Made by a program: the position numbers and the translations under genes. The notes beneath the pieces are model-generated. The model made no database searches. It saw only the letters and a program-made list of their open reading frames with translations, and was not told where the DNA came from. Of a stretch of 64,000 bases of DNA, positions 25,046 through 62,714 are shown one piece after another. The number at the start of each line of letters is the position of its first letter. Position 1 is the first letter of the stretch. The DNA comes from an uncultured Pseudomonadales bacterium (GTDB lineage Bacteria; Patescibacteriota; Microgenomatia; UBA1400; MFAQ01). The DNA is taken from NCBI GenBank assembly GCA_964357975.1, contig CAYHNG010000004.1:6380-70379 (forward strand), written 5' to 3'.

Positions 25046-25070
25046 AATATAATTATAGATACTAACAATT

Positions 25071-25475: not shown

Positions 25476-25558
25476 TCTTTTGAAGTGACTTTCTGAGAAA
25501 AGGAAGCCAAATCTCTACCTTTTAAGATCCCAGAAATCTGGGCGAAATTTATTTAAGG

Positions 25559-25631
25559 TGACCCCGGCGGGACTCGAACCCGCGATATTCAGGATGAAAA
25601 CCTGACGTCCTAACCACTAGACGACGGGGCC
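25559..25631 (-). tRNA. tRNA-Glu (anticodon TTC)
   Basis: Reverse complement is GGCCCCGTCGTCTAGTGGTTAGGACGTCAGGTTTTCATCCTGA...GGTTCGAGTCCCGCCGGGGTCA. Cloverleaf has a 7-bp acceptor stem and anticodon loop TTTTCAT. No encoded CCA. Confidence 0.85.
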
Positions 25632-25645
25632 AAATGTTAACAAAG

Positions 25646-25718
25646 TGGGTCAGGCGGGACTCGAACCCGCGACACCCTGCTTAAAAGGCAGGTGCTCTAA
25701 CCGACTGAGCTACTGACC
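25646..25718 (-). tRNA. tRNA-Lys (anticodon TTT)
   Basis: Reverse complement is GGGTCAGTAGCTCAGTCGGTTAGAGCACCTGCCTTTTAAGCAGG...GGTTCGAGTCCCGCCTGACCCA. Anticodon loop is CTTTTAA. Confidence 0.85.
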
Positions 25719-25926
25719 CATGATAACTTACAAGATTATTTTAAGGTAATTTTGGGATCTAGATAAGGTGCCTTTTGAGCTACCCGCCTGCAGTAGTTAT
25801 CGCTACAGCGATTGCGGGCAGGCTGACCCAAGAACCACGCTCATATTTTATCATTTACAGGGTACAAAATAAACCTGAAAAGGTAACTGGTACTTATTGG
25901 GCTTTCTGTGGCTGTACAATCAAATT

Positions 25927-47197: not shown

Positions 47198-47818
47198 TTA
47201 GGCGTATTTCCTTATCACACCCACACATTTTCCCTGAACTTTTACGTTTATGGCAAAAATTGGAGACATGGAAGAGTTTGCAGGCTCAAGACGTACTCGG
47301 GTTCTTTCCCGAAAAAACCTCTTTAGAGTGGCGAGTCCGTTTTCCAATAGTGCCACAACAATATCGCCATCTTTTACAGCCCCTATTTCACACTCTTCAA
47401 TCAGTACAAAGTCATGGTCAAATATTCCTTCCTCAATCATCGAATCCCCTTTCACTTGAAGCACAAAGGCCCTTTTCTTACCAGAAACCATTGACGAAGA
47501 AACCCTCATGGTGGCATTTGGATCAGTTAGTGGCTCAATCGGTCGTCCTGCTGCAATATAGCCCAAAATAGGGAGTTCTAAAGACGCCAATTCCACACTC
47601 GGCCTATCTACCACTTCAATCCCACGAATAGCTCCATCAAACTTTCGAATGATCCCTTTCTTTTCCAGGGCCTGTAAATGTTCGTGGATAGTAGCTAAAG
47701 AGGAGACGCCAATTGCATTTGCAATTTCCGAAAGAGTAGGGGAGTAGCCGTTCTTTTGAATAAACTGAGAAATAAATTCAACAATCTGTCTTTGTCTTTT
47801 GTATAGTGTTACGGCCAT
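47198..47818 (-). CDS. lexA: LexA repressor
   Basis: N-terminal wHTH (LSEIANAIGVSSLATIHEHLQALEKKGII). Cleavage-site region LGYIAAGRP. S24 peptidase VKGDSM...GDIVVA...KRF. Start at the internal ATG (MAVTLYKRQ). Confidence 0.85.
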   Translation of the reverse strand: MAVTLYKRQRQIVEFISQFIQKNGYSPTLSEIANAIGVSSLATIHEHLQALEKKGIIRKFDGAIRGIEVVDRPSVELASLELPILGYIAAGRPIEPLTDPNATMRVSSSMVSGKKRAFVLQVKGDSMIEEGIFDHDFVLIEECEIGAVKDGDIVVALLENGLATLKRFFRERTRVRLEPANSSMSPIFAINVKVQGKCVGVIRKYA

Positions 47819-47927
47819 AGATTCATTATTACCAAACAATACCCAAATGTCAACTAATAAAATCCAAACCATCAACAGCTAGTTTATTGTTCCTCAGCTT
47901 CGGCTGGGGCATTTCTATGCCTGCGAT

Positions 47928-47956
47928 TTGACAACTCAGCCTCAATATGGTATTAT
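47928..47956 (+). promoter_or_regulatory. near-consensus sigma70 promoter TTGACA-N17-TATTAT driving the zinc-ribbon gene divergent from lexA
   Basis: TTGACA at 47928..47933 and TATTAT at 47951..47956. An AGGAGA RBS lies before the ATG at 48004. Confidence 0.45.
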
Positions 47957-48003
47957 ATAGGACGTACCTTCAATTCAAGCTGCATCCGATAGGAGATAAT
48001 CTT

Positions 48004-48342
48004 ATGAAAAAGTGCCCCAATTGTTCGTATTCGAACCCTGATGTCAAGTTCTGCGCCGAGTGTGGCACCGATCTTCGAACTGTTGAAGTCAAGAAAACCT
48101 GCTACATAGCCATGAAAAGTGAGGACGGTGTATATACAGTCCGTGGAGAGCGCTATCCCACCCGTGAGGCATTTGAGGATGCTCACCTTAACATGATGCA
48201 CAACCTTGATGGCATCTTCGTCATCCACGCCTTTGTGGATGATCTGGTTACCGGTCAACCATTTACTCCGATCGGTATAGACAAGATCGTCAACTTCGGC
48301 ACCTTCCGCCGCTACGATCCATTCCCAATCACGCTCTCCTGA
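48004..48342 (+). CDS. zinc-ribbon protein (CPNC...CAEC)
   Basis: MKKCPNCSYSNPDVKFCAECG is a Cys4 ribbon. The rest is unrecognised. Located between lexA and uvrB. Confidence 0.4.
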   Translation: MKKCPNCSYSNPDVKFCAECGTDLRTVEVKKTCYIAMKSEDGVYTVRGERYPTREAFEDAHLNMMHNLDGIFVIHAFVDDLVTGQPFTPIGIDKIVNFGTFRRYDPFPITLS

Positions 48343-48374: not shown

Positions 48375-50423
48375 ATGGACTTTCAACTAGAATCAACCTA
48401 CCGCCCAACTGGAGACCAGCCTAATGCCATTGAAAAATTGGCTATTTCTATCGACCAACAAAACCCGCATCAAACTTTAGTAGGGGTTACTGGTAGTGGC
48501 AAGACGTTTACCATAGCGAACGTCATCCAGAAAACTCAGCTTCCCACCCTAGTCATGTGTCACAACAAAACGCTTGCTTCTCAGCTATACCAAGAGTTTC
48601 GGGACTTTTTCCCTCACAACGCCGTTTCCTATTTTGTTTCTTACTACGATTACTACCAGCCGGAGGCCTACATTCCCCAAACCGACACATATATCGAGAA
48701 GGAAGCCGACATCAATCCAGAAATCGACAAATTTCGCCTGACTACCACGGCTAATCTTTTATCTCGCCCGGACAGTATCGTGGTCGCCTCGGTTTCCTGT
48801 ATTTATAATATCGGCTCTCCGCTCGATCAGGAGCAAAACCTTTTGCCCTTAGCCCGTGGACAAGTAATCTCCCGGGATACTGTTCTTATGCGTCTTTCGG
48901 ACCTTCAATATACCAGGACAGCTTCCGAGCTCACGCGAGGCATGTACCGGGCAGTTGGTAGTACCGTACAACTATATCCTTCCTACAAAGATATTATTAT
49001 TTCCATGAGTTTTGAGGGGAATACGCTCGCCAATATCGAGATTCTTGATCCCTATAACTACACCCCTATCATCGACGAAGACTTGGAAAATACCGGCTTT
49101 CTGACTATTCATCCGGCTAAACTCTTTATCACTAACCCCAAAACTCAGGGGGACGCCATAGCCATAATTAGAAAAGACTTGGAAACCCAAGTAAAAGCTT
49201 TTAAAGATGCCGGTAAGATTATCGAAGCCCATCGGATAGAGCAAAAGGTCAATTACGATCTCTCCATGCTCGAAGAGGTTGGCTATGTCAGTGGAATCGA
49301 AAATTATTCTCGATACTTTGATGGTCGTGTAGCTGGATCTGCCCCATACTCCTTGTTTGAATATTTCCATTACAACGCCAAGAAATTTAACAAACCTGGC
49401 TTTCTGACGGTCATTGACGAGTCTCATATTTCTCTACCTCAAATCAGAGGTATGTATAACGGTGATCAAGCGCGCAAAGAAAATCTTATCAATTTTGGTT
49501 TTCGTCTCCCCAGCGCCAAAGACAACCGCCCGCTAACTTATACCGAGTGGCAGTCCAGAACTCCTATCAAACTTTACTGTTCCGCTACGCCCACCGAACA
49601 CGAACTCTCGCTTTCGCGTGGTAGTGTAATTCCCACAGTGGCTGAACAGCTTATTCGACCTACCGGTTTACTCGACCCGGAGATACGGGTTTTTCCTACT
49701 AAAGGTCAAATAGATCACCTCACTCAAGAGGTTATCAAAAGAAAAGAAAAGGGTGAAAGGACTTTAATTCTTACAATGACCAAAAGAATGGCCGAAGATC
49801 TTGCGGACCATTTAAAAGTAAAATACAACCTAAAAGTAGAATATCTTCACTCGGATATCCATACCATGGACCGGGCTGACATTTTGGACAAACTTCGCTT
49901 GGGAGACTTCGATTGCCTTGTCGGTATCAATCTCTTAAGAGAAGGGCTTGATTTACCGGAAGTGTCACTAGTAGCCATTCTCGATGCCGACAAAGAGGGT
50001 TTCTTGCGTACTTCAACGGCACTCATCCAAACCATGGGTCGAGCCGCCAGACACGTTAACGGAGAAGTCTATTTGTACGCCGATCGCATCTCAGACTCTA
50101 TGAAAATCGCTATGAGCGAAACTCTTCGCCGCAGGAAGATTCAAATGGATTACAACTCTGCGCACGGAATCACCCCTCAGGGCATTATTAAGCCCATTAG
50201 AGATCGTCTCTTTAAGCAAGAAAGCCAAAGCCCGGCACCGCGTATCAAAGAGCTGGCCGAACATGGCTGGACCGAAATTGACGATATAAATCCCGAAGCC
50301 CTTACACCTCAGAAAAAAAAGATTCTCGTTGTCAAGCTCAAAAAAATGATGAACCAAGCCGCCAACTCCTGGAACTTCGAGCTCGCCGCCCGCTACCGCG
50401 ACACCATCAAGAAACTACAATAA
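48375..50423 (+). CDS. uvrB: excinuclease ABC subunit B
   Basis: GVTGSGKTFTIANVI, DESHISLPQIRGMYNGDQARK, and the C-terminal UVR domain (ELAARYRDTIKKLQ). Confidence 0.95.
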   Translation: MDFQLESTYRPTGDQPNAIEKLAISIDQQNPHQTLVGVTGSGKTFTIANVIQKTQLPTLVMCHNKTLASQLYQEFRDFFPHNAVSYFVSYYDYYQPEAYIPQTDTYIEKEADINPEIDKFRLTTTANLLSRPDSIVVASVSCIYNIGSPLDQEQNLLPLARGQVISRDTVLMRLSDLQYTRTASELTRGMYRAVGSTVQLYPSYKDIIISMSFEGNTLANIEILDPYNYTPIIDEDLENTGFLTIHPAKLFITNPKTQGDAIAIIRKDLETQVKAFKDAGKIIEAHRIEQKVNYDLSMLEEVGYVSGIENYSRYFDGRVAGSAPYSLFEYFHYNAKKFNKPGFLTVIDESHISLPQIRGMYNGDQARKENLINFGFRLPSAKDNRPLTYTEWQSRTPIKLYCSATPTEHELSLSRGSVIPTVAEQLIRPTGLLDPEIRVFPTKGQIDHLTQEVIKRKEKGERTLILTMTKRMAEDLADHLKVKYNLKVEYLHSDIHTMDRADILDKLRLGDFDCLVGINLLREGLDLPEVSLVAILDADKEGFLRTSTALIQTMGRAARHVNGEVYLYADRISDSMKIAMSETLRRRKIQMDYNSAHGITPQGIIKPIRDRLFKQESQSPAPRIKELAEHGWTEIDDINPEALTPQKKKILVVKLKKMMNQAANSWNFELAARYRDTIKKLQ

Positions 50424-50425
50424 CA

Positions 50426-51067
50426 CTATTTTAGTTTCTTTCCTTTGAACACTGTTCCCCCTACTGCATCTTTAGACCGACTTGTGTCAATAACTCTTCC
50501 ATCTAGATCTGATAAATCATCTTGAACAATTCCATTCTCTTTAAGAAACCGTCTGATTATTCTTCTTGCCTCTTCCCCATACTGTCGACTTTCGTTCGTT
50601 CGGTTATCAAGCAGTATGTATATTATGGTTCCTTGACGGATAAATTTTTCCAACTGGCCAAGTAAATCATCCTCGACAATATTTCTAGGGTTTGGAGCGA
50701 TCATCATGATTAGATCTGCCTTAAACGAGGGAATGACTTCCACCTCACCAGGAACAAGTACTCTTTCTGCACCCATTTCGACTCGACGATCACCTCTTGC
50801 GACCTTCTGGTCAATAAAATATCCAAGTGCGACGTCCGCCCCAATCCACACATCGCCCGATCTTTGATCAACTGATAATCCTGGTGGTCTAAAACCTGGA
50901 CCCACATCCAGCACCCTGAATTTACTTCTTTCAATAATTTCCATAATTTGTGCCTTGCTCGCATCAAAAGTTTTTAGTCTAAAATCCAAAACTCTAGCAG
51001 AGAGCAGAGTGTCTGTTACTCTCTCTTTACCTAAATTGAATTCAGCAACAGCTGGGGATCCGATCAT
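50426..51067 (-). CDS. hypothetical protein, possible SAM-dependent methyltransferase fold
   Basis: FRVLDVGPGF resembles MTase motif I. Otherwise unrecognised. Confidence 0.3.
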   Translation of the reverse strand: MIGSPAVAEFNLGKERVTDTLLSARVLDFRLKTFDASKAQIMEIIERSKFRVLDVGPGFRPPGLSVDQRSGDVWIGADVALGYFIDQKVARGDRRVEMGAERVLVPGEVEVIPSFKADLIMMIAPNPRNIVEDDLLGQLEKFIRQGTIIYILLDNRTNESRQYGEEARRIIRRFLKENGIVQDDLSDLDGRVIDTSRSKDAVGGTVFKGKKLK

Positions 51068-51150
51068 ATCTTCAGATTATAGCGAATATAATAACCACAT
51101 GGACGAAACAAAATTAGTCAGCAATACATGGATCGAAAAAGGGGTGGCCA

Positions 51151-51650
51151 TGAAATTTACTTGGTACCCAGGAGAGAATCTGGAACAGTTTCAGCCATTT
51201 AATCAAGTTTATGGTGTCGTCTTTAATGCAGACGGTCAAATGCTCATTCAAAGAAGGGGGTTAAGACCTTGGTGCCTGGCCGGAGGGACCGTTGAAGTAG
51301 GGGAGACCGCCGAAGAAACTCTCAGGCGCGAACTAATTGAAGAAGCCGATGTTACCGTCAAGAATCCCATTTTGCTCGGCGGGCAAAGAGTGCAATTTCC
51401 CGGCGGGCATAATCCTAATCCCGGCAAACGTGGTGGTGGTGATGATTTCTATCAACTCCGCTATTACTGCGAAGTTGACGAGGTGTTACCTCAAACACCC
51501 GATCCTGATCACGACATCATTAACGATCGCCTCTTTGTTCCCCAAACAGAGATAAATAATTATCTTAACTGGGGCATTACCGGACAAGTTATCTTCGACC
51601 AAGCCATCGCCCTCTGGCTTTCACTTCATCCAGTGCCGCTTGGTGGATAA
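51151..51650 (+). CDS. Nudix hydrolase
   Basis: Nudix box region GGTVEVGETAEETLRRELIEEADV. ATG at 51151 has an AAAGGGG RBS. An alternative start is at 51099. Confidence 0.55.
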
Positions 51651-52176
51651 ACCCGTAGACCTTACCATAATCTCCCCAAGAGAACTTTCCACCCGGGTGT
51701 TCAAAGAAATTATCACTGGCTAATCCAAAATAATTTGCTACGAGCTGACGATATTCGGCTTCGTCCATCCTGACCACATCGGAAACGTCATCTCCCGAAA
51801 TCAATTCCTTCATTCCAAGCGGGAGGTAATAAACAAAAGCCGTATGAGAAAATTTTTCTTCTTTAAAAGCACCCTCAACATTTACCCGAATCAACGGGAC
51901 AAATTTCTCTGCCGGTTCCTTAATACCAAGTTCTTCTTCAGTTTCTCTGATAGCTGCAGAAAGGACATCTTCACCGTCGTTAATTCCGCCACCAATCATT
52001 CTCACAATCCCTTCCGGGTAAAATCCCTTCTTGTCTCCCAAGATAAATTTTCCGGAACCATCTTTTCCCAGAATCAAGACAGTTCTATCCCGATATCGTA
52101 AATTTTCAAAAGGTAAATGAGATAGTTCAACCTTACAATCAATTTCTTTAAACATAATCAAATTATAATATTTCAA
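51589..52176 (-). CDS. Nudix hydrolase
   Basis: GGGINDGEDVLSAAIRETEEELGI matches the Nudix box. 3' end overlaps the convergent Nudix gene. Confidence 0.55.
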   Translation of the reverse strand: MKYYNLIMFKEIDCKVELSHLPFENLRYRDRTVLILGKDGSGKFILGDKKGFYPEGIVRMIGGGINDGEDVLSAAIRETEEELGIKEPAEKFVPLIRVNVEGAFKEEKFSHTAFVYYLPLGMKELISGDDVSDVVRMDEAEYRQLVANYFGLASDNFFEHPGGKFSWGDYGKVYGFIHQAALDEVKARGRWLGRR

Positions 52177-52178
52177 AA

Positions 52179-52748
52179 CTATTTACCGACATCCAACAAT
52201 TTCGTTAATTTCTGATAGTCGGTAATTCCGTTCTCCAAAACTGCTTTATAAATATCCGTACTGGAAACTCGATTCTTGTCGTCTCCTTCCATTTCTCTTA
52301 TTTGCTTAAGTCTCAATATTGCCAGTTTACTTTCAGGCGTCAGACTTTTTGCGTATCGTAAATCTCTCTCTGTTTTATCCTGTGGATATTTATCGACAAA
52401 CCAAATTTCTGTCTCCCATTTCACTCCATTTATTTCCGAGATCAAAACCACAATGAAACCCTTGAGTCGGCCCATTCTTGGAAATTTCACAAAATCCCCA
52501 TACTGATATTTTTGAAACTGCCTCTCTTCAATCAGCATTTTCATGACATTTACGGAGGCATGTCTTGGATCGCCGGTTTCCACTACGATATCGATATCCG
52601 GGCCGTACATCAAATTCAGACTCAAACTACCTATGATCGAGCATTTTCCATATTTTGAAAGCAGGGGAATCAATCCGGAGTCAGCCAGTATCCTATTGGC
52701 AATATCTTTTTGGCTTTCAGAATAATTCAGCAATTCAGCGTCGTTCAT
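52179..52748 (-). CDS. Pol-beta-superfamily nucleotidyltransferase-like protein
   Basis: GSLSLNLMYGPDIDIVVET resembles the G[SG]-x9-13-D.D NTase motif. Confidence 0.4.
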   Translation of the reverse strand: MNDAELLNYSESQKDIANRILADSGLIPLLSKYGKCSIIGSLSLNLMYGPDIDIVVETGDPRHASVNVMKMLIEERQFQKYQYGDFVKFPRMGRLKGFIVVLISEINGVKWETEIWFVDKYPQDKTERDLRYAKSLTPESKLAILRLKQIREMEGDDKNRVSSTDIYKAVLENGITDYQKLTKLLDVGK

Positions 52749-52928
52749 TGTCTCATTTTACTCCAGTGCCAAGCCTACCGCGACCGAAGTAAAAGGGTCA
52801 AACTCGGTTACTTTCTCTTTTCCAGACATTTCAACGATCATTGATCCAAACCCGTCTGCATGATAAATTTGATCCTGACTAATATGCTTAGAAAGTCATC
52901 GTTCAGTGGTAAGACAGGGAACTTACAT

Positions 52929-53510
52929 TTAGATGTTACCGTAGCCCTTGTCACTTTTGAGTGCTCTGATGATTAGGTCCCGTATCAATTCAGATTTTGA
53001 TACACCCAACTCGTTTGATTTCCAGTCTAGGTACCCGTTTTCCAGGTTTTGAAGCACCAGGTTAAATCTTACTTTCTCAGAAAATTTTTTAGCCAGGGTG
53101 TTCTTTAAAATTTTGGCAACATCTTCCTTGGTATTGTAATAATTTACCGAAATTCGACTATCATCAACAAAATTAATCAACTTATTCTTCAAAATCTCCT
53201 TTGCGGACTCTTTGTAGAATATAAAAACAGGCTTGTTTTTTTGTAGAGCCAATGAAATCTGAAACCCAGTACTTAGGCCACCATTGGTCCCCTCAACAAC
53301 CACAATATCTGATCTAAGCAGATCTGAAGAGACAGATTTGTTGATCTTAGAGAAATCTAGAGTCGTCAGCCCCCTATATGCCTCTTTAGCCTCACCAATC
53401 CAGTCCCTTGTCAGGACGTTTCCAGTCTCAATAATGGCATCCTTTACAGCCATAATGTCTGGCATCCTAGCCTCAAAATTGTCTGTGGAGGTGGCAAAAA
53501 ATACTTTCAT
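52929..53510 (-). CDS. fusion of a nucleoside 2-deoxyribosyltransferase-like Rossmann domain with a C-terminal ribbon-helix-helix DNA-binding domain
   Basis: N-terminal MKVFFATS...DIVVVEGTNGGLSTGFQISLALQKNKPVFIFY (NDT-like). C-terminal RFNLVLQNLENGYLDWKSNELGVSKSELIRDLIIRAL has the RHH pattern (beta-strand + ..SRSELIREAI..). Confidence 0.45.
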   Translation of the reverse strand: MKVFFATSTDNFEARMPDIMAVKDAIIETGNVLTRDWIGEAKEAYRGLTTLDFSKINKSVSSDLLRSDIVVVEGTNGGLSTGFQISLALQKNKPVFIFYKESAKEILKNKLINFVDDSRISVNYYNTKEDVAKILKNTLAKKFSEKVRFNLVLQNLENGYLDWKSNELGVSKSELIRDLIIRALKSDKGYGNI

Positions 53511-53587
53511 CGTATTATAGAGTTGCTATTGACAAATTATAACATATAGGTTATCATGCACACGAATGCGCATATTAATTAAAGCTT

Positions 53588-54013
53588 ATGAAAATAACTA
53601 AAAGCTTTTCTTTTGCAATGGGTCATCGTTTACCCCTTCACTCGGGTAAATGTTCCAACTTTCATGGTCATAACTATGACGTGACTATTACTCTCGATTT
53701 TGAAACCGGCCAGAGCTTCATAGAAGGGGTCGGTTTTTTAATAGATTTTGGAGATATAAAAAAGTATGTTGACGAACGTTTTGATCATAAGTTCGTCATG
53801 CAGTCTTCAGATCCGTACTTGAAATCCATCGCACCGCTAGAGATACCCGGCTTGGTAGTGGTAGATTACGCCCCAACCGCCGAAAATTTGGCTACAGATA
53901 TTTCTCAAGGACTAAAACAATATATTTCAACACAAGGATTTAGTTCAAATCAGTTCAAGGTCATAGTCAAACTATGGGAAACCAGTAATTCATTTGTAAC
54001 TCAAATAGCCTAA
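53588..54013 (+). CDS. queD: 6-carboxy-5,6,7,8-tetrahydropterin synthase (QueD/PTPS family)
   Basis: FSFAMGHRLPLHSGKCSNFHGHNYDVTITL is the QueD Cys/His zinc motif. Confidence 0.8.
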   Translation: MKITKSFSFAMGHRLPLHSGKCSNFHGHNYDVTITLDFETGQSFIEGVGFLIDFGDIKKYVDERFDHKFVMQSSDPYLKSIAPLEIPGLVVVDYAPTAENLATDISQGLKQYISTQGFSSNQFKVIVKLWETSNSFVTQIA

Positions 54014-54015
54014 AA

Positions 54016-54825
54016 ATGAAAATTCTTAAGGCGAGCGATATAACCACAAAATACTCCCCGACAAAAGAAGATCTTTCCAATCTAATAAAAAAGGACAACA
54101 CCTTTAAACTCTCTGGTGATCGCATCTTTCACACAATTCAAGGGGAAGGGGCAACACTGGGTAAACCAGCAACTTTTGTCAGACTACACTTCTGTAACTT
54201 ATCATGTTCCTGGTGTGACACCTGGTATACCTGGCACCGGGATACCGAACAGTATTACAAAGAACCTTTTGATATGAGCGTCTCCGAACTTCACCGGGGG
54301 ATTAGAAATGCACAAGCCGCAAAAGGTGTCTCTGAAGAAAATCACGTCTATCGAGTGATTTTTACCGGGGGTGAACCAATGCTTCAGCAAAATGAAATTG
54401 CCCAATTCTTAATCGAGAACCCGGTATACATCTGCGAAATAGAAACCAATGGAACCATAGCCCCAAATGAATTTCTGCAGAAGCTTTGCAAAGAGGACAG
54501 AATACGGTTCAACTGTTCCCCTAAATTGGCGAATTCAGGAAATAATTCAAAAATTGCCTTTAACCAAAACGTTCTGAAAATACTGGCAAGTTTCCCAACA
54601 ACGATATTTAAATTTGTCTGTAATAAACCCAATGACATCGATGAAATTCTGGAAAAATTCAACTTTTTACCTAGAGGGCAAATTGTCATTATGCCAGAGG
54701 GGGTTACAAAAGAAGAAAATGCCGGCGCTTACGAAAGGATTATTAACAAAATAATCGAGCTCAGTTTAACTACTTACCCAAGATTACAAAATATCTGCTT
54801 TGACGGGTCAAAGCGGGGTGTTTAA
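54016..54825 (+). CDS. queE: 7-carboxy-7-deazaguanine synthase (radical SAM)
   Basis: IQGEGATLGKPATFVRLHFCNLSCSWCDTWYTW has the CxxxCxxC cluster motif in QueE context. Confidence 0.8.
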   Translation: MKILKASDITTKYSPTKEDLSNLIKKDNTFKLSGDRIFHTIQGEGATLGKPATFVRLHFCNLSCSWCDTWYTWHRDTEQYYKEPFDMSVSELHRGIRNAQAAKGVSEENHVYRVIFTGGEPMLQQNEIAQFLIENPVYICEIETNGTIAPNEFLQKLCKEDRIRFNCSPKLANSGNNSKIAFNQNVLKILASFPTTIFKFVCNKPNDIDEILEKFNFLPRGQIVIMPEGVTKEENAGAYERIINKIIELSLTTYPRLQNICFDGSKRGV

Positions 54826-54830
54826 AAACA

Positions 54831-55379
54831 ATGACACAATCAAAAATTGAAGATGCGTTTAAAAAGGTCGTCTCGGAATTAAATCCAAATTGGGAAAGTG
54901 ATCCCGATATGAGGGAAACGCCTCACCGACTTGGTCGCTTCTACATGCATTTTTTCCGCAATGAGGATCCAAATGCTCACATGGGGAAACGTTTTCCAAC
55001 AAAAAACAGGAATTTCGTTATTGTCAAAAACATTGAATGTTTCGGTATGTGTCCTCATCATCTAACTCCTGTAATTTACAAAATAAATATTGGTTACCTT
55101 CCCGAAAAATGGGCACTTGGTTTAAGTAAGCTTGCTCGTGTCGCAGTTGCCTGTGCCAGTAGTCCCAAATTGCAAGAAAATCTTACCTCCGATATTGTTG
55201 ATTGTGTCTACAAGCAATTAAAACCAAACGGTGTTATTGCAACAGTAGAAGGTGTTCATGGTTGTATGAGATGTCGCGGCGTTGAACAAGATACATCGGC
55301 CGTAACGGTTGATTACCGAGGTAAAAAAATGAATGATCTTAAGATAAAAAACGAGTTTTATACTTTACTAAAAATATAA
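54831..55379 (+). CDS. folE: GTP cyclohydrolase I
   Basis: FGMCPHHLTPVIYKINIGYLP compares with the FolE CEHHLVPF motif. 182 aa. Confidence 0.85.
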   Translation: MTQSKIEDAFKKVVSELNPNWESDPDMRETPHRLGRFYMHFFRNEDPNAHMGKRFPTKNRNFVIVKNIECFGMCPHHLTPVIYKINIGYLPEKWALGLSKLARVAVACASSPKLQENLTSDIVDCVYKQLKPNGVIATVEGVHGCMRCRGVEQDTSAVTVDYRGKKMNDLKIKNEFYTLLKI

Positions 55380-55864
55380 TGACTCCGATAATTCATAACT
55401 TTAGTTGGCAAGACATCTCCATCCTCTGTCAAAATATATCTAGAAAAATCGAGGCTGACAACTTTCAACCAGACATAATAGTTACTCCTCAAAGAGGAGG
55501 TTTTGTGCCAACGGCTATATTATCCCACCTATTAAGGTGCAGAGAGGTTATTGTCGTCGACATAAAAAGAACGTTGTCGGATGAAATTCATGCTGCCAAG
55601 ACCCCCCCGACCTTGACCAGTGATATCGACACGGAAAGACTTAAGGATAAAAAGATTCTTGTTATCGACGACATTATAGGGAGTGGAGAAACACTCCATT
55701 TTCTATTAAATATATTGGGAAAATGCAAGCCCAAAGCCATTAAGACCTCAATATTGGTCCAGAATGATGAGAATTTTGAAAAATCATTATTAAGAAACAA
55801 TTTGAAGCCTGATTACCTGGGCAAGAACGTTAGGGGTTGGGTAATATTTCCATGGGAGAAATAA
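55379..55864 (+). CDS. Gpt-like (xanthine/guanine-type) phosphoribosyltransferase, candidate 7-deazapurine-base PRTase
   Basis: PRPP loop KILVIDDIIGSGETL. N-terminal ISWQDI...IIVTPQRGGFVPTAILSHLL and C-terminal GWVIFPWEK parallel E. coli Gpt (VTWDML...IIAVSRGGLVPGALLAREL ... TWIEQPWDM). Start overlaps the folE stop. Confidence 0.65.
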   Translation: MTPIIHNFSWQDISILCQNISRKIEADNFQPDIIVTPQRGGFVPTAILSHLLRCREVIVVDIKRTLSDEIHAAKTPPTLTSDIDTERLKDKKILVIDDIIGSGETLHFLLNILGKCKPKAIKTSILVQNDENFEKSLLRNNLKPDYLGKNVRGWVIFPWEK

Positions 55865-56412
55865 ATCTAACCTACAAGACAAAGCCCTTTGTCTTGACCG
55901 GCGGACCGGGAGTCGGGAAGACTATGACGGCAATAGGGCTTGAACTAAAAGGATATTTTGTAATTCCTGAGGTGGCTGAATCATACATAAAGCTGCAACA
56001 ACATCTTGGAGATAAATATCCGTGGGAGGACAAGAATTTTGAAGCCATCGTCCTGAGGTATCAGCTTCAAAAAGAATCCGTATTGAAGGAATTAAGGAAT
56101 GTCGGTCCGGTTTTTATTGATCGCGGTAATTTAGATGCACTTGCATATTATCAATATTATGATCGACCCATCAGTCCTTTAATGAAACAAGTGATTGCTT
56201 GCCACGAAAAAACCAAAATCTATAACAAGATATTCTTGCTAGAACAACTAGGAGGTGAAAAGACTACAGAAATACGAAAAGAAAATAGTTTTGAGTCTAA
56301 GTCTCTCGAATTGCTACAGGAAAAAAACTACCGAGATTTTGGATATGAAGTTATCAGAATACCAGCCCTGCCGTTAGCGGAACGGGTTAAATTAGTTATT
56401 TCGAAAATATAA
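55852..56412 (+). CDS. P-loop nucleoside/nucleotide kinase-like protein
   Basis: Walker A LTGGPGVGKTM and DRGNLDALAY (DR-type motif of NMP/dN kinases). Overlaps the PRTase 3' end. Confidence 0.5.
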   Translation: MGEINLTYKTKPFVLTGGPGVGKTMTAIGLELKGYFVIPEVAESYIKLQQHLGDKYPWEDKNFEAIVLRYQLQKESVLKELRNVGPVFIDRGNLDALAYYQYYDRPISPLMKQVIACHEKTKIYNKIFLLEQLGGEKTTEIRKENSFESKSLELLQEKNYRDFGYEVIRIPALPLAERVKLVISKI

Positions 56413-56419
56413 ACATACA

Positions 56420-57712
56420 GTGAACAATTACAAAAAATTGATCTTTATTGGGGCTGGTCCAGCCTCGTTATTGGCGGGAAACATTCTTTGGAAAAACGGA
56501 TTCCATGATTTCTTAATATTGGAAAAAGGATTGGGTGTACATGAAAGAAATAAATATGACAAAAACGAAAATATCTGTTCCAGTATCAACGGAATTGGCG
56601 GTGCTGGTTTATTCTCGGACGGTAAGTTGAATTTCTCTCCTCAAATCGGCGGTCTACCGCTTAAGATCATGTCTAGTGACAGATATCAAAAATGGTCAGA
56701 AGAGCTAAAAAACCTAATTCCTGCGAAAATTGTCGAAACCGACTTTTCCGGTATTGAAAACTTCAATAAATCGAACAAAGACATAAATTTTTTAGCTATC
56801 GAACAGCGCCATGTCGGTACCGATTATTTACCTGCTATCGTAGATAGGTTAATCGATGGTTTCGAGAAAAATATCCTTACCGACGTAGACGTAACAGATG
56901 TGACAAAAAAAGATTTTGGCTTTGAAATAATTCTAGCTGACGGAAGAACTTTGGAATGTGAAGAACTAGTGGTAGCTACCGGACAAAGAGGTGCGGCTTT
57001 TGCTAAAAAATTGGCTGTAAAAATGGGTGTAAATGTCTCCTCTGTTGTCGCCGATATTGGTGTCCGTCTAGAAACAGAAAAAAATATGTTTAAGGCCTTA
57101 ATCGACTTACAATATGATCCAAAGATTTATTTTAAATTTGGAAATAAGCCTACGGTTAGAACATTCTGTACTAATCCCGGAGGAGACGTTATCGTAGAAA
57201 ATAAAGGAGATTACGTCACAATAAATGGCCATGCAAGTATTACGGATCAGACAGACTTTACAAATACCGCACTCATGTGTCGCATTGAAAATCTCGAAAA
57301 TCCAAAAGAATACACGGAAAAACTCTGTCGTCGCATTTCTAGTGTCACCGGAAACAAGATAGGAGTTCAGGATATTTCTGAACTAATTGACACTAAACCC
57401 TGCAGTTTCAAGATTCGCATACCCTATGTGAAAATGGATATCCGTGAATATTACGATTCCTTAGCATATGAACCAATAGTTGAAACTTTAAAAAAACTCA
57501 ATAAAATTTTGGATAAAAAACTAGAGGGATACATCTATTTCCCCGAAGTAAAACTCTATAACGATCACATAGATATCAAAAAGGATAGTTTAGAAGCTCA
57601 GGGAACAAAAGGACTTTACTTTTTAGGTGATTGTTGCGGTGTTATCCACGGACTTACAAACGCATGCTTAGCCGGTCAATCGTTTGCTCATACTTATTTG
57701 GAAAATATATGA
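56420..57712 (+). CDS. FAD-dependent oxidoreductase (COG2509-like)
   Basis: N-terminal dinucleotide fold LIFIGAGPASLLAGNIL. C-terminal GLYFLGDCCGVIHGLTNACLAGQ. Confidence 0.55.
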   Translation: MNNYKKLIFIGAGPASLLAGNILWKNGFHDFLILEKGLGVHERNKYDKNENICSSINGIGGAGLFSDGKLNFSPQIGGLPLKIMSSDRYQKWSEELKNLIPAKIVETDFSGIENFNKSNKDINFLAIEQRHVGTDYLPAIVDRLIDGFEKNILTDVDVTDVTKKDFGFEIILADGRTLECEELVVATGQRGAAFAKKLAVKMGVNVSSVVADIGVRLETEKNMFKALIDLQYDPKIYFKFGNKPTVRTFCTNPGGDVIVENKGDYVTINGHASITDQTDFTNTALMCRIENLENPKEYTEKLCRRISSVTGNKIGVQDISELIDTKPCSFKIRIPYVKMDIREYYDSLAYEPIVETLKKLNKILDKKLEGYIYFPEVKLYNDHIDIKKDSLEAQGTKGLYFLGDCCGVIHGLTNACLAGQSFAHTYLENI

Positions 57713-58533
57713 AAATCAACTCTGAAAAATCGGAAATGACTTTCAATTTAGAAAGATTGGCAGAAACTTCAAATTCTCTCGTACTTGTCACAGCCGCCAA
57801 TATGTTAATTGAGAATTCAGCTGTTACGATTCAGCCTTCAAAAGAAGTAACTGAAAAACTTCTTTCTCTTTTAGATGCACTCGAGGAAATGCCTGCAATA
57901 AACGCCTTTGCAATTGAAGGGGTCAGAGGTTCTGGTAAAACGACTCAGATCGGTCTTCTCGAAAACGGTGATTTTGCTGTCTCAGGAAGCCGGTTAATAA
58001 CTCCACTATATACAGATTTTATTCAGCCTCAGAAAAAAGACGTGTACATGACGATGTTTGGAGGAGAGGGAAGACCCACCGGAAGCATCATTGACTCACT
58101 AATAATCGCCGCTTTTCACGCTGATCGGTTAACAAGAGTTCAGGCTATCAGTTATAACAAGCCCTTATTGATTGATAGACATTGGCTTTCATTTTATGCC
58201 ATTGAGAGGGCTAAAATGATCCAATCCGGGTTAGATGCTGAAATAGCTGAAAACATTGTCGCCAAAATTGTAACGACTTGGAACCAGGTTAATCTTACCT
58301 TAGTACTTCATAATGTTCTCGTAGCTGTCGGTGAAAATAGAATCATACAACGTGGAGAGGCGGTTCGAAGTGAAAACGAAATACAGATTGAGACTCTAGT
58401 ATCAGAGACGATTGAACTCTTTTGTGGCGGAAAATCCCTCATACCCAAATTTAACAATACCACCAAATTTTTTGATGCCCAAAAATCTGCCGAGGTTTTG
58501 CACGAAGAAATTAAACAGTACTTTATAAAATGA
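57709..58533 (+). CDS. thymidylate-kinase-family (d)NMP kinase with N-terminal extension
   Basis: FAIEGVRGSGKTTQIGLL (Tmk P-loop IEG.DGSGKTTQ) and LLIDRHWLSFYAIE (Tmk DR..S..YQ motif). ATGA overlap with the preceding stop. Confidence 0.55.
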   Translation: MKINSEKSEMTFNLERLAETSNSLVLVTAANMLIENSAVTIQPSKEVTEKLLSLLDALEEMPAINAFAIEGVRGSGKTTQIGLLENGDFAVSGSRLITPLYTDFIQPQKKDVYMTMFGGEGRPTGSIIDSLIIAAFHADRLTRVQAISYNKPLLIDRHWLSFYAIERAKMIQSGLDAEIAENIVAKIVTTWNQVNLTLVLHNVLVAVGENRIIQRGEAVRSENEIQIETLVSETIELFCGGKSLIPKFNNTTKFFDAQKSAEVLHEEIKQYFIK

Positions 58534-59177
58534 AAAAAATAGAACTTGAAATTGACGAACTAAAAAAACGTTGGAACGAACGAGCATCAAGTTGGGATAA
58601 TGACTTAAAAGATCCGGAGCATTATTCAAATTTTGAACATTCTTATGAAAGAACCGATAGATTCACTTTAAAATATTTAAATCAGATATTTTCAATTAAT
58701 AAAGCAAATAATTCTCTCGATTTAGGATGTGGTACGGGAGAAAGTACTGTGAAACTAATACCTTATGCCCACAATATTTTTGGGGTAGATATCTCCGGAA
58801 ATATGATCCTAAATGCTATTTCAAAAAAATATCCCATCGAATTTACCTGTCAAAACGCAATGTCATTAAGCTTCCCAGATCAAATGTTTGATCTGGTAAT
58901 ATCTCGCGGCATCATGATCTCCCATGTACCTCTTGGGGGACAGGAAGATGTTGTTAGGGAAGTTGCCAGAATCACCCATAAGGGATCTGTAATCATCCTT
59001 GACTTTCTTCACGATATCGAAACAAAGAAGAAATATACAAAGTATTCTTCACCAAAAGCGCATTATAATGAAGAATCGATTATTTTACTTCTTAAGAGTG
59101 TGAATATAACGGGTAAATATTATTATGGTGGCACAAAAACCGAACGAGTAAATCGTATAGCAATTATTCGAGATTAA
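58530..59177 (+). CDS. class I SAM-dependent methyltransferase
   Basis: Motif I LDLGCGTGEST, and post-I LVISRGIMISHVP. Start overlaps the preceding stop. Confidence 0.65.
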   Translation: MKKIELEIDELKKRWNERASSWDNDLKDPEHYSNFEHSYERTDRFTLKYLNQIFSINKANNSLDLGCGTGESTVKLIPYAHNIFGVDISGNMILNAISKKYPIEFTCQNAMSLSFPDQMFDLVISRGIMISHVPLGGQEDVVREVARITHKGSVIILDFLHDIETKKKYTKYSSPKAHYNEESIILLLKSVNITGKYYYGGTKTERVNRIAIIRD

Positions 59178-59178
59178 A

Positions 59179-59736
59179 ATGAAACAAATTCACTTCGCTA
59201 CAACTAATGAATATAAAATCAAATTTGCTAACAATCTTTTAAGAACTCATGACTGGGAATGTGTACCAGGAAAAGTAAATTTAATTGAGCCGCAATCAAT
59301 GACACAAGAAGAAATATCCCAATACAAAGTGTTACAGGCATATGAGCAATTAAAAGTTCCTGTAATTACAATGGATTCAGGAATTTTTATTAGTGCTCTA
59401 AAAGGATTCCCAGGCATATACACTGCTGATTTTTTCAAATCTCTGAATAATGACCAGATTCTTCAGCTAATGGAAAAAGAATCTGACCGCAGCGCTTATA
59501 TCCAGCAAACATTATCGATAAATAACGGCGAGGAAATAAAATCTTTCACTAGTAAATCAGAAGGAGTCATTGTTCAATCTACGGAGGCAGGCGAAGGTTA
59601 CGCTTTCGACGCTTTTTTTAAACCAAATATTACAGGTAAGATAATGGCTAAGATGACAGAAGGTGAAAAGAGTTTAATCTGGGGTGAAGCGTGGAACAAA
59701 TTGGGTGATTTCCTAAACAGCTCATCATTACAATAG
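59179..59736 (+). CDS. Ham1/ITPase-family NTP pyrophosphatase (second paralog)
   Basis: IHFATTNEYKIKFA and VITMDSGIFISALKGFPGIYTADF match RdgB motifs. It starts 1 nt after the methyltransferase stop. Confidence 0.6.
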   Translation: MKQIHFATTNEYKIKFANNLLRTHDWECVPGKVNLIEPQSMTQEEISQYKVLQAYEQLKVPVITMDSGIFISALKGFPGIYTADFFKSLNNDQILQLMEKESDRSAYIQQTLSINNGEEIKSFTSKSEGVIVQSTEAGEGYAFDAFFKPNITGKIMAKMTEGEKSLIWGEAWNKLGDFLNSSSLQ

Positions 59737-59789
59737 TTTATTTAAACTCTTCGGGTATTTTAGGGTGATTTGGCGTATAATAAACAGTC

Positions 59790-62714
59790 ATGTCCGGCAC
59801 ATCACCTTCCACTCATTTGATCATCAAGGGAGCTCGTCAGCATAACCTCAAGAACATCAATCTGACACTACCCAAGAACAAACTCGTCGTTTTCACCGGT
59901 GTTTCGGGTAGCGGAAAGTCCAGCATGGCCCACGATACCATCTACGCTGAAGGTCAACGACGCTATGTCGAGTCTCTCTCCTCCTATGCGCGACAATTTT
60001 TAGGGGTCATGGACAAGCCCGATGTCGATCAGATTGAAGGACTTTCCCCGGCCATCCTCATCGACCAAAAGCAGGGGAGCCACAATCCTCGCAGTACCGT
60101 CGGCACCGTCACCGAGATCTATGACTATCTCCGTCTTCTCTTTGCCCGTATTGGGCACCCTCACTGCCCCCAATGCGGTCGTGAAATCATGCCTCAGGAT
60201 ATTAACCAAATCTACAAAGCGGTCATCGATCTGGCCGTCAGTCACCCCAGCTATCAAAAGCAAAAGGGTGTGCGTTTACTAATCCTGGCTCCCATTGTCA
60301 AAAATCAGAAAGGTGAATTCAAAGAGCTTTTTCCGGGCTTGGTCAAGCAGGGGATAGCCGAAGTCAGAGTCGACCGCAAAATCCTCTCCACTCAATCCAC
60401 CCTTTCTCTCTTCAAAAATAATCGACACAATGTCGAGGCCGTTATCGACAAGATCATCATTGGCCAGGTCGGTGGTAGTCCGGAGTATGAAAAACAAAGA
60501 TTGGTCGATTCTTTAGAACAAGCTCTCAAAATTTCCGATGGCGAAGTCTATGTCAGCATTGTAATCGATCCTTCGCTTTCCTTTCCCACCGATCCTGAAG
60601 ATATGGAAGATCATTTGTTCTCTCAGAAGCTCGCTTGTCCGATCGACAACATATCTATACCCGAAATAGAACCACGTTATTTTTCTTTCAATGCTCCCGA
60701 GGGCGCCTGTCCGGAATGCACCGGACTAGGAACCAAAATGGTCTTGGACACTGACTCGGTTGTATCTCCTTCATTAAGTTTTCTTGAGGGTGCCATTATT
60801 CCTCTGGCTTCTCAATTCGAAAGCAGAACCTGGTTAGCTAAATTAATTCTTGAAGCCATGGAATCAGTGGGCTTTCCTGGAAACAAACCTCTCTTTGATA
60901 TGACGGAAGAACAAAAGAATTTTCTCTTTAAAGGCACCGCCGAAAAAAACTTTTCCATCAAGGGCATTAACCGGCACGGCAAGCACGTCCTTCGAAGGAT
61001 GACCTTTGGTGGACTTTCCAAAGAGTTCGAGAGACGCTATGAAGAGTCTTCTTCGGAATCTTTTAAGGAAGAAATCTCCAAGTATTTAATCCGCAAAACC
61101 TGCCCGGTTTGTTTTGGAACCCGTCTCAAGCCGGAAGTCTTGGCCGTTCACGTAGACAACCAATCAATTAGTGAGATTACCTCTTGGTCAACCGCCAAAT
61201 CTTTCACTTTTTTCCAAGATTTATTCAAAAAACTTACAGCCACCGAAAAGCAAATCAGTGAGCCAATTGTCAAGGAAATCGGGGATCGGCTAAGTTTCCT
61301 AATGTCCGTTGGGCTTGACTATATTACTTTGGCTCGGGAATCCGGCACTCTTTCCGGTGGTGAGCTTCAAAGAATTCGTCTGGCTAGCCAAATTGGTTCT
61401 CGACTAACCGGCATTCTCTATGTTTTAGACGAGCCCACCATTGGCTTACACCAGCGCGACAACGCTAAACTTATCAAAACTCTTCAGGACCTCGTATCGC
61501 TCGGAAATTCCTTAGTTGTTGTTGAGCACGATCAACAAACCATGGAGTGTGCTGATCACATCGTCGAATTTGGACCAAAAGCGGGTTATTTGGGTGGAAA
61601 GATTACTTTTGAAGGTACGGTGGAAGAGATGAAAACTTCTGACTGTCTTACTGGACAATATCTTTCCGGCAAGAAAGCCGTTGTCGCCACAATACCGAAA
61701 GAACCCACAGAAAGTCCGGCTTCCATTCGGCTTACCGGCTGCACTCACCACAATTTAAAAAACATTGAGGTTGATTTTCCCCTGAACAAATTTGTTGCGG
61801 TTACCGGCGTTTCCGGATCAGGAAAATCATCACTGGTGGTAGACACTTTGTATGAAGCTCTGTCTCAAAAACTTAACCCTTTACACCATAAAGAAGATAT
61901 TCAATTTGGCACTATCACTATTCCGGATATTGTCAGAAGGGTTTCTTTGATAGACCAAAGTCCCATCGGCAAAACTCCCAGAAGTAATCCGGCTACCTAT
62001 ACCAAAGTCTTCGACTATATTAGACAGTTATTTGCCAACACCCAAGAAGCCAGATATCGCGGATACGGACCTGGACGTTTTAGTTTTAATGTCAAAGGCG
62101 GCCGCTGCGAAACCTGCGAGGGAGATGGTCAGATTAAAATTGAGATGCAGTTTCTAGGTGACATCTATATTACGTGCGAAACCTGCAAAGGCACCCGTTT
62201 TAATGATCCTACTTTGGAAGTTGAATACAAAGGTAAAAATATTGCTCAGGTTCTTGGTATGACTATGGACGAAGCCAGTGACTTTTTTAGAAACGTCCCC
62301 GCGATCAACAAAAAAATTGAAACTATTAAAAAAGTTGGACTTGGATATATCAAGTTGGGACAAAGCGCCCCTACACTTTCAGGGGGAGAGGCCCAGCGTG
62401 TCAAGTTGGCCACCGAACTCGCCAAAACCGGTAGTGGTCACACGGTTTATATCCTCGACGAACCCACCACCGGACTTCACTTTGAAGACCTTAGTAAGCT
62501 CGTTCAGACCCTCGTTGACTTGGTCAATCAAAATAATACGGTTATTGTTATCGAACATAATCTAGACGTTATCAAGAATGCCGACTATATTATTGACATT
62601 GGGCCTGAGGGAGGAGATTTGGGAGGTGAACTGATTGCCAAAGGTAAACCATCTCATGTTTCCGCAAAATACGACACCCCAACGGCTCAAGAGTTAAAAA
62701 AGCTAGTCTTCTAA
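59790..62714 (+). CDS. uvrA: excinuclease ABC subunit A
   Basis: Two ABC modules ([12 protein letters not shown] ; [12 protein letters not shown]), LSGGE signatures, and zinc-finger cysteines (CPQCGREI ; CPECTGLG ; [14 protein letters not shown]). Confidence 0.95.

Follow-up and report, generated by a model that had tools for sequence, protein, structure and literature searches.

A low-GC insert between uvrB and uvrA of a Candidatus Collierbacteria genome carries a predicted 7-deazapurine nucleotide operon

The DNA analyzed here is a 64,000-nucleotide stretch, called the window throughout, from a member of Candidatus Collierbacteria from groundwater; it matches a contig of the 0.1-um-filtered metagenome Hain_H41_01um (ENA ERZ1292624). 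Between uvrB and uvrA the window carries a strain-specific low-GC insert of 6,968 bp (positions 52782 to 59749), delimited by its GC content and by blastn breakpoints against a close relative. The insert holds a predicted regulator gene and, divergent from it, an operon of nine plus-strand genes that overlap or are separated by gaps of no more than 7 nt. The reading that we favor, with reasonable though far from complete confidence, is that the insert is an acquired, self-contained pathway that would build a ribotide of 7-carboxy-7-deazaguanine (CDG) in the manner of the tubercidin cluster, that it adds new tailoring steps, and that its product would be an antimetabolite.

A nine-gene operon with candidate genes for CDG synthesis

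FolE, QueD, and QueE convert GTP to CDG, and candidate genes for all three open the operon. The first, queD (53588 to 54013), encodes a predicted 6-carboxytetrahydropterin synthase that matched PF01242 (E 2e-24) and, under the model cut-off, TIGR03367 (E 1e-21). Its product keeps the CxxxHGH motif (as CSNFHGH), which marks an active QueD, unlike DpdL (PMC10516641). The next gene, queE (54016 to 54825), encodes a predicted radical S-adenosylmethionine (SAM) 7-carboxy-7-deazaguanine synthase that was detected by Pfam Radical_SAM (PF04055) and by five NCBIfam QueE models, all under cut-off; its best match was the phage QueE family phrog_2076 (E 1e-51). The GTP cyclohydrolase I gene folE (54831 to 55379) matched PF01227 (E 4e-42) and the NCBIfam FolE model (E 3e-43, under cut-off). 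The fourth gene (55379 to 55864) encodes a purine-type phosphoribosyltransferase (PRTase; PF00156, E 6e-19) with the archaeal purine PRTases 4z1o and 1vdm as its best PDB matches, and a PRTase gene stood beside folE, queD, and queE in every related cluster looked up.

The other five genes encode two P-loop proteins, a flavoenzyme, a methyltransferase, and a pyrophosphatase. Some of them could be compared with their counterparts in the nearest operons, found on contigs L256, L083, and L082 of the Logan assemblies SRR33674923, SRR22387916, and SRR22388083, respectively. The P-loop kinase encoded at 55852 to 56412 belongs to the AAA_28 (NadR ribosylnicotinamide-kinase-like) family (PF13521, E 3e-23); its L083 homologue is 57% identical, L256 and L082 have none, and its start coordinate is that of the gene call. 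It is followed by a gene for a 430-aa FAD-dependent enzyme (56420 to 57712) that was assigned by Pfam to a sub-clade of COG2509/PF21688 and matched PDB entry 3nlc (E 1e-8); a literature search on COG2509 returned no functional information. The product of the next gene, orf274 (57709 to 58533), is a thymidylate-kinase-like P-loop protein, with weak PDB and Pfam matches to thymidylate kinases only. Its family is very rare: a search of 5.8e9 proteins gave one homologue and one of 1.84e9 gave five representatives. The two members that were aligned both keep the motifs EGVRGSGKTTQ and IDRHWLS. The class I SAM-dependent methyltransferase gene (58530 to 59177) matched Methyltransf_25/11 (E ~1e-16), and its product is 54% identical to the L256 homologue; its NCBIfam matches (UbiE, BioC, Tam, and others) are too unspecific to tell the substrate. 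The last gene (59179 to 59736) encodes a Ham1/RdgB-family non-canonical purine NTP pyrophosphatase (PF01725, E 7e-28; NF011396 XTP/dITP diphosphatase, E 1e-37, under cut-off) that is 66 to 69% identical to its homologues in L256 and L083. QueD, QueE, FolE, and Ham1 are thus divergent members of their families, since their NCBIfam scores lie under cut-off.

Several genes that accompany CDG synthesis in other systems were looked for in these 64 kb of genome. There was no QueC (PF06508) and no UbiD (PF01977) among the insert proteins, and tblastn searches of the whole window with two QueC sequences and one UbiD sequence were empty. GMP reductase (PF00478) was not found among the insert proteins, nor were ToyE/F/G and nitrile hydratase domains of the toyocamycin type among all ten of them, and Pfam detected no transporter domain in the insert. 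Neither the insert nor the open reading frames (ORFs) of the window that were scanned contained QueF, Tgt, QueA, or QueG. Each insert protein had either another assignment or no match to TGT/DpdA, and the scanned ORFs of the window gave no TGT; very distant DpdA3/4-like proteins may exist elsewhere in the genome.

The regulator gene, orf193 (52929 to 53510, minus strand), encodes a protein with a DNPH1/Rcl-like domain and a putative C-terminal ribbon-helix-helix segment. Over its N-terminal 140 residues it resembles the 2'-deoxynucleoside 5'-phosphate N-hydrolase DNPH1/Rcl both in sequence (phmmer against the PDB, E 0.003 to 0.009) and in predicted fold, DNPH1/Rcl being first in Foldseek (E 4e-4) with an AlphaFold model of low confidence (pLDDT 57.6) that was used only alongside the independent sequence match. 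The best PDB match, 8qhq, is the substrate-trapping E104Q mutant of DNPH1, whose GVGYQLG aligned with GFQIS of orf193 where other DNPH1 entries have GYELG. Thus, the position of the catalytic Glu of DNPH1 is occupied by Gln in orf193. Because of this substitution and the added ribbon-helix-helix segment, both of which set it apart from DNPH1, orf193 is predicted to be a regulator that senses a nucleoside monophosphate rather than a hydrolase.

The gap between orf193 and queD is 77 bp long and contains a promoter-like site on the plus strand (53529 to 53557; TTGACA, 17 nt, TATCAT), the best site of the region, with 11 of 12 positions in agreement and 30 nt between it and queD. Inside this site is the weak palindrome ATAAC-N6-GTTAT (53539 to 53554), with arms of 5 nt, which may be an operator. 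At the other end of the operon, no terminator-like structure was found between the ham1 stop codon and uvrA (59737 to 59789). Read-through from the operon into uvrA is therefore possible, in addition to transcription from the conserved promoter of uvrA itself.

The insert was very probably acquired at a variable site

The operon lies in a block of deviant base composition. In 1-kb windows the GC content was 0.33 to 0.40 at ~51.5 to 59.5 kb compared to 0.44 to 0.47 on both sides, and in 2-kb windows it was 0.39 to 0.46 over the first 40 kb. An initial annotation of the window had described a low-GC block of about 9.3 kb, reaching from 50424 to 59789, between flanks of 45 to 50% GC. Sliding-window GC and codon usage bear out the existence of such a block: the 13 ORFs inside that interval had a mean GC of 0.387 and a mean GC at third codon positions (GC3) of 0.365, compared to 0.440 (standard deviation, 0.031) and 0.445 for the 41 ORFs outside it (Mann-Whitney p ~2e-5 to 3e-5), and the drop was present in GC3 and at all codon positions. 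The flanks were measured at 44 to 47%, and both composition and comparison with relatives move the left limit from 50424 to 52782, the left 2.4 kb of the interval (50424 to 52781) being only slightly low at 0.419. The insert proper has a GC of 0.377 compared to 0.440 for the remaining window, all other windows of 6,968 bp being at or above 0.423, and its tetranucleotide distance to the remainder is 0.247 compared to a maximum of 0.133 for other chunks. The low-GC block is far beyond chance. The GC-normalized dinucleotide bias of the insert is not distinct from that of the host.

The same site was compared in close Candidatus Collierbacteria found by a protein database search, a set of six loci with five distinct arrangements and UvrB proteins 83 to 95% identical to that of the window. 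The operon is missing from this site in all of them (L169 to L175). Homology to L171 by blastn ends at 52781 and restarts at 59750; between these points L171 has only 55 bp, in contrast to the 6,968 bp of the window. The right breakpoint at 59750 is identical against all relatives, is shared with L169/L170, where it also precedes the uvrA promoter, and adjoins the conserved uvrA promoter region. Absence from the orthologous site, the deviant composition, and the low-GC contigs on which the nearest operons occur with the same gene order make it very likely that the insert was acquired horizontally, as the initial annotation had proposed for the 7-deazapurine operon. No integrase domain was found among the insert proteins (Pfam), no tRNA gene lies within 24 kb, and the only flanking repeats were short, of low identity, and not convincing, in agreement with the earlier remark that no integrase or direct repeats are visible at the edges. 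A 15-nt inverted match (47141/59734) was judged to be due to chance. As there is neither an integrase nor repeats, the most likely mode of entry would be recombination through the conserved flanks.

Not all of the 9.3 kb is new, however. The regulator gene and the operon are, but the two Nudix genes and the candidate nucleotidyltransferase that had been counted as part of the island belong to the backbone, with 77 to 89% amino acid identity in relatives, so the interval as a whole was rejected as a single island. Nudix hydrolase 1 (51099 to 51650, plus strand; PF00293, E 7e-15) is 77 to 89% identical in L169 to L172 and 61% in L173. Nudix hydrolase 2 (51589 to 52176, minus strand; PF00293, E 1e-9) is 84 to 85% identical in L169 to L172. 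The product of orf189 (52179 to 52748, minus strand), 77% identical in L171/L172, may have a nucleotidyltransferase fold, as suggested by a GS...DIDIV motif read from its translation; its only Pfam match was weak (DUF4269, E 0.16). The left backbone anchor is uvrB (48375 to 50423, plus strand; identified by Pfam), whose product is 91 to 95% identical to UvrB of Collierbacteria, and the right anchor is the uvrA promoter region (59750 to 59789) with uvrA (59750 to 62714 together, plus strand), whose product is 91 to 95% identical; a tataat sequence lies at ~59776 to 59781, upstream of uvrA. The genes uvrB, uvrA (59790 to 62714), and lexA (47198 to 47875) all lie where they had been placed, but nothing ties the cargo functionally to SOS repair, and such a link was rejected.

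Nor did the insert arrive as the one island in an otherwise undisturbed junction, since the spacer is variable in this lineage. It is 0.6 kb long with one small ORF in L174 (UvrB 88% identical); 3.2 kb with a 499-aa ORF, one Nudix gene, and an acetyltransferase gene in L173 (91%); 4.1 kb with two ORFs without assignment, two Nudix genes, and orf190 in L171/L172 (94%); and 4.7 kb with one ORF without assignment, two Nudix genes, and a three-gene ABC transporter in L169/L170 (95%). An extreme example was L175 (83%), where the spacer exceeds 9.5 kb without reaching uvrA and holds two Nudix genes and genes for an HSP70-like protein, a pyrophosphatase, two radical-SAM proteins, a CofC/Nudix fusion, and a CYTH protein. 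Because the relatives show five different contents and lengths, the uvrB-uvrA spacer in this lineage is a hot spot that recurrently takes up accessory genes and varies from 0.6 to >9.5 kb. A synteny check that had been suggested, whether uvrB and uvrA are adjacent where the island is absent, gave a divided answer. In close relatives they are separated by these spacers, whereas in distant relatives (GTDB species representatives with UvrB 47 to 53% identical, among the matches listed) uvrA mostly lies directly 3' of uvrB, with gaps of ~30 to 120 bp in the candidate phyla radiation (CPR) and Firmicutes. The intervening genes of the window occurred in none of these listed loci.

Other variable features were seen in and around the spacer. 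The cargo 3' of the Nudix pair in L175 (12057 to 21572) includes the CofC/DUF2064-Nudix fusion and resembles another nucleotide-related module. The ABC transporter of L169 (14111 to 16677) and L170, an ATPase with two ABC2_membrane_6 proteins, stands in place of orf189 and the insert. Directly 3' of uvrB and outside the low-GC insert is the small variable gene orf213 (50426 to 51067, minus strand), in a stretch with a GC of 0.413; it had no Pfam or NCBIfam match and no tblastn match in the relatives, which carry unrelated ORFs of 170 to 499 aa at this position, a second, smaller variable slot in the spacer. In the gap between lexA and uvrB, a zinc-ribbon ORF (47947 to 48342) is 82% identical in L171 and 31% in L173 and was not detected in L169/L170. 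Residues ~330 to 430 of UvrA had no tblastn counterpart in several CPR UvrA proteins (L002, L004, L013, L018, L043, and L047), where the high-scoring segments covered residues 10 to 330 and 433 to 973; in those genomes the segment either is missing or has diverged far more strongly. A second low-GC spot of the window (24569 to 25719; ORF GC, 0.32 to 0.37) contains a zeta-toxin-like ORF (24569 to 25081, minus strand) and an ORF without assignment (25071 to 25475), and adjoins tRNA-Glu and tRNA-Lys directly upstream of ruvC-ruvA-ruvB.

Related operons and viral PRTase modules

The gene combination of the window was found on only three other short contigs among those looked up. L256 carries queD-queE-folE-prt-fad-orf268-MTase-ham1 (44 to 66% amino acid identity; GC, 0.323), L083 carries folE-queD-queE-prt-AAA_28-fad-orf292-ham1 with queC (36 to 69% identity; GC, 0.353), and L082 carries queE-folE-prt-fad-queC-ham1 with genes for a Dam-class methyltransferase and an AAA_17 protein and with queD (GC, 0.33). 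The GC of the insert, 0.377, falls between those of these contigs (0.32 to 0.35) and that of the host (0.44).

The closest homologues of the flavoenzyme are rare and 33 to 54% identical, and all five members of its sub-clade that were looked up sit in 7-deazapurine clusters; a further context, that of P0246, was a 2-kb contig and uninformative. Among metagenome loci, 80 that belong to the COG2509 family at large (27 to 33% identity) had no deazapurine neighbors, which makes the link to deazapurines specific to the sub-clade. A metagenome scan with an alignment of the flavoenzyme revealed no further copies of the operon. Two other groups of contigs, L084 to L086 (folE-Nudix-MFS-fad-prt-queD-queE-ubiD-ubiX) and L087/L088 (folE-prt-fad-ubiD-pfkB-queD-queE), reproduce the tubercidin gene set with the flavoenzyme in the slot of the GMP reductase TubD, which they lack (for example, L084:7621-15174 and L087:8345-14583). 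This may be a non-orthologous replacement or may point to another kind of redox tailoring. The cluster and a right flank with an rve transposase are common to L084 and L085, whose left flanks differ, so this cluster looks mobile.

Related modules also occur in viruses. Of 80 IMG/VR viral loci (L176 to L255), at least 36 have a PRTase gene of the same family next to queE and folE, with queD in some cases as well; these PRTases are 23 to 31% identical along most of their length. Examples are L184:6654-9105 and L237:9102-11629, the former being 3' of a family-A DNA polymerase gene that carries an intein. QueC was present in only 2 of the 80 loci, and Pfam detected no TGT in the ORFs scanned on the viral PRTase contigs. 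The QueE of the window is 50% identical to a phage-contig QueE. Viral scans with alignments of the flavoenzyme and Ham1 gave no specific relatives, orf274 likewise had none in viral contigs, and tblastn with the flavoenzyme and the PRTase against GenBank phages gave no specific relatives. The two main papers on 7-deazaguanine in phages do not mention a PRTase.

Proposed pathway and alternative explanations

In the proposed pathway, FolE, QueD, and QueE would make CDG from GTP. With QueC and UbiD both missing, the purine-type PRTase would then join CDG and phosphoribosyl pyrophosphate (PRPP) to yield 7-carboxy-7-deazaguanosine 5'-monophosphate; this step is modeled on TubE, which couples CDG and not 7-deazaguanine to PRPP in a Tub pathway that has no QueC (PMC6112128; 10.64898/2026.04.15.718813), and is suggested by the family of the enzyme and its conserved linkage. 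Without UbiD, the carboxyl group would be retained. Judged from gene content, this CDG-ribotide chemistry is probable. The COG2509-type flavoenzyme and the SAM methyltransferase would tailor the ribotide, and the methyltransferase might esterify the carboxyl group or methylate elsewhere. The thymidylate-kinase-like protein and the AAA_28 kinase would raise the phosphorylation state, and Ham1 would return a purine-like NTP to the monophosphate. Together, these enzymes would serve to adjust how much of a triphosphate product is present or else to clear the analogue from the NTP pool of the producer. The presence of two kinases with Ham1 implies that the di- and triphosphate level matters, either because the triphosphate is the active form or because Ham1 protects the pool. 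Finally, the seemingly inactive DNPH1-like domain of orf193 would sense a nucleoside monophosphate, and its ribbon-helix-helix segment would bind DNA and control the operon. The product would be a CDG-derived 7-deazapurine nucleotide or nucleoside, an antimetabolite like cadeguomycin or tubercidin, directed against competitors, the host cell, or phages.

A number of points weigh against this reading. All of its steps are predicted from genes, and those for QueD, QueE, FolE, and Ham1 scored under the curated NCBIfam cut-offs. A TubE-like role of the PRTase is predicted from its family and linkage. The assignment of orf274 to thymidylate kinases depends on E values of 0.01 to 0.06 and on motifs, its AlphaFold model (two-sequence alignment, pLDDT 50) being unusable. 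For orf193, the RHH_1 match at residues 165 to 184 was weak (E 0.015, under the Pfam cut-off), and the low pLDDT of its model counts here too. To encode two kinases together with Ham1 would seem futile if all of them acted on the same substrate. QueC, TGT, or DpdA could lie elsewhere in the genome, outside these 64 kb. The insert has no exporter and no dedicated phosphatase, unlike the Tub cluster, and for this reason an intracellular nucleotide fits better than a secreted antibiotic.

Some of these same features have suggested other functions. The operon might serve to modify nucleic acids at the nucleotide level: the two kinases would bring a 7-carboxy (or methyl-ester) 7-deaza-(d)GTP analogue to the triphosphate, a polymerase would incorporate it into DNA or RNA, Ham1 would remove a competing purine NTP, and the module would come from a phage DNA-hypermodification cassette. 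The combination of two kinases and an NTP pyrophosphatase in one operon without an exporter would fit this explanation, as would the phage-like QueE, the viral PRTase modules with their rare QueC and, in one case, an adjoining family-A DNA polymerase, and the Dam-class DNA methyltransferase next to the L082 cluster. However, the insert contains no polymerase, ribonucleotide reductase, or other phage gene, its flavoenzyme, orf274, and Ham1 lack viral relatives, and a cell could hardly tolerate having the G content of its genome rewritten by an island that it has only just acquired; moreover, the known 7-deazaguanine DNA modifications are all made after replication by DpdA transglycosylases (PMC10516641). 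We regard it as unlikely. A more speculative proposal, to which slightly less weight is given, is that the operon and the phage PRTase-QueE-FolE modules (at least 36 contigs) represent a common pre-replicative route through the nucleotide pool, in which CDG would be ribosylated by the PRTase, phosphorylated to a (d)NTP analogue, and then either built into DNA or RNA by a polymerase or used as an antiviral polymerase poison, with Ham1 editing the pool. If true, this would be the first 7-deazaguanine route into nucleic acids without a TGT/DpdA transglycosylase. Less probable again is an anti-phage chemical defense, in which an intracellular 7-deazapurine nucleotide analogue would poison phage polymerases, like the ddhNTPs of prokaryotic viperins (pVips), with Ham1 and the regulator limiting self-harm. 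The location in a hot spot that holds other accessory cargo in relatives, the kinase genes beside a radical-SAM enzyme as in kinase-associated pVips, the missing exporter, and a regulator predicted to sense a nucleotide would agree with defense, but no phage-sensing component is evident, no neighboring defense genes were seen, PADLOC returned nothing specific, and QueE matched pVip models at E 5e-7 (the generic radical-SAM core) compared to E 1e-51 for QueE.

Two further explanations are very improbable. The region might be native and vertically inherited, its low GC reflecting gene function or expression and its absence from relatives reflecting loss. The edges without integrase, tRNA, or repeats and the host-like dinucleotide bias would allow this, but synteny contradicts it: five different arrangements in the relatives all lack the operon, with a breakpoint within 55 bp. 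In addition, GC3 and every codon position show the drop, the nearest relatives of the genes are just 37 to 69% identical, and L082, L083, and L256 have no Collierbacteria backbone gene. It is just as hard to believe that the operon supplies preQ0 or CDG to a TGT for tRNA modification of the queuosine or archaeosine type. FolE, QueD, and QueE are indeed the first three enzymes of that pathway, but QueC, QueF, Tgt, QueA, and QueG are lacking from the insert and the scanned ORFs of the window, the PRTase, kinases, flavoenzyme, and Ham1 have no role there, and the operon is absent from close relatives. The tubercidin-like CDG-ribotide pathway remains the reading that we prefer.

Implications

Genomes of CPR/Patescibacteria are tiny, and to our knowledge few specialized-metabolite pathways have been reported for them. 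If the pathway is intact and recently acquired as read here, it would point to chemical antagonism or manipulation of nucleotide pools in CPR episymbionts. In a preprint of 2026 that mined ~2 million genomes, the putative 7-deazapurine clusters came mostly from Streptomyces, and a term search of its main text showed no mention of Patescibacteria, FAD, kinase, or Ham1 (10.64898/2026.04.15.718813). No paper was found that ties Collierbacteria or Patescibacteria to 7-deazapurines, and the operon of the window is apparently outside current surveys. It offers several enzyme candidates, among them the COG2509 flavoenzyme sub-clade found in 7-deazapurine clusters only (five looked up), the rare thymidylate-kinase-like family, and a predicted DNPH1-like sensor fused to a DNA-binding domain. 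Cadeguomycin (7-carboxy-7-deazaguanosine) is listed without an identified gene cluster (PMC12648386), and the operon is a possible gene source for compounds of this type. The phage contigs with related PRTase-QueE-FolE modules link the operon to phage biology as well.

Comparison with known systems

The nearest characterized system is the tubercidin cluster of Streptomyces tubercidicus (tubA-I; PMC6112128). Both encode FolE, QueD, and QueE together for CDG, both lack QueC (for the insert, within the 64 kb), and both include enzymes that handle nucleotide phosphates. Both also encode a PRTase; TubE was shown to couple CDG to PRPP, and the enzyme of the window is a purine-type PRTase predicted to do the same. 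Unlike the tubercidin cluster, the insert has no UbiD decarboxylase (TubF), GMP reductase (TubD), or MFS exporter (TubI), and its predicted product would keep the 7-carboxyl group. The Tub cluster also has a Nudix phosphatase, TubG, whereas the Nudix genes next to the insert are host backbone; they were rejected as its equivalent because they are conserved in relatives without the operon. The insert in turn adds the COG2509 flavoenzyme, the SAM methyltransferase, two P-loop kinases, Ham1, and the DNPH1-like/ribbon-helix-helix regulator, and it resides in a CPR bacterium, not in an actinomycete.

The closest overall likeness is to the operons of L256, L083, and L082, which have largely the same order, queD-queE-folE-prt-(AAA_28)-fad-TMK-like-(MTase)-ham1, with 31 to 69% amino acid identity and a GC of 0.32 to 0.35. 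They differ in content: AAA_28 is missing from L256 and the methyltransferase from L083, which has QueC. L082 has neither kinase of the window type and carries QueC together with a Dam-class methyltransferase and an AAA_17 protein. The toyocamycin/sangivamycin (toy) cluster of Streptomyces rimosus likewise joins a GTP-derived 7-deazapurine base to ribose phosphate by a PRTase (ToyH) and tailors it at the nucleotide level, but it needs QueC (ToyM) for preQ0 as well as ToyE/F/G and a nitrile hydratase, none of which is in the insert. L082 and L083, which carry QueC, are closer to the Toy logic.

Other systems share less with the insert. The Dpd and phage systems for 7-deazaguanine modification of DNA (PMC6884629; PMC10516641) also have FolE, QueD, and QueE genes, and the phage QueE family is the nearest to the QueE of the window, but what defines these systems is a transglycosylase of the DpdA/TGT family, which exchanges the base in DNA after replication. 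There is no such enzyme in the insert, and a PRTase route acts on free nucleotides. The queuosine tRNA pathway differs in its QueC, QueF, Tgt, and QueA/QueG, and pVip systems differ in that the radical-SAM enzyme here is not of the viperin family, QueE models scoring far above pVip models. Like other genomic islands, the insert is absent from the orthologous site in relatives and deviates in base composition, as do the ORFs of 50424 to 59789 in GC3; it bears no mobility marks such as an integrase, a tRNA target, or flanking direct repeats. As a genomic island it is ordinary, and its cargo is unusual and rare. The definitions of the Toy, Dpd, and queuosine systems fail outright for this cargo, whereas the core logic of the Tub cluster is kept.

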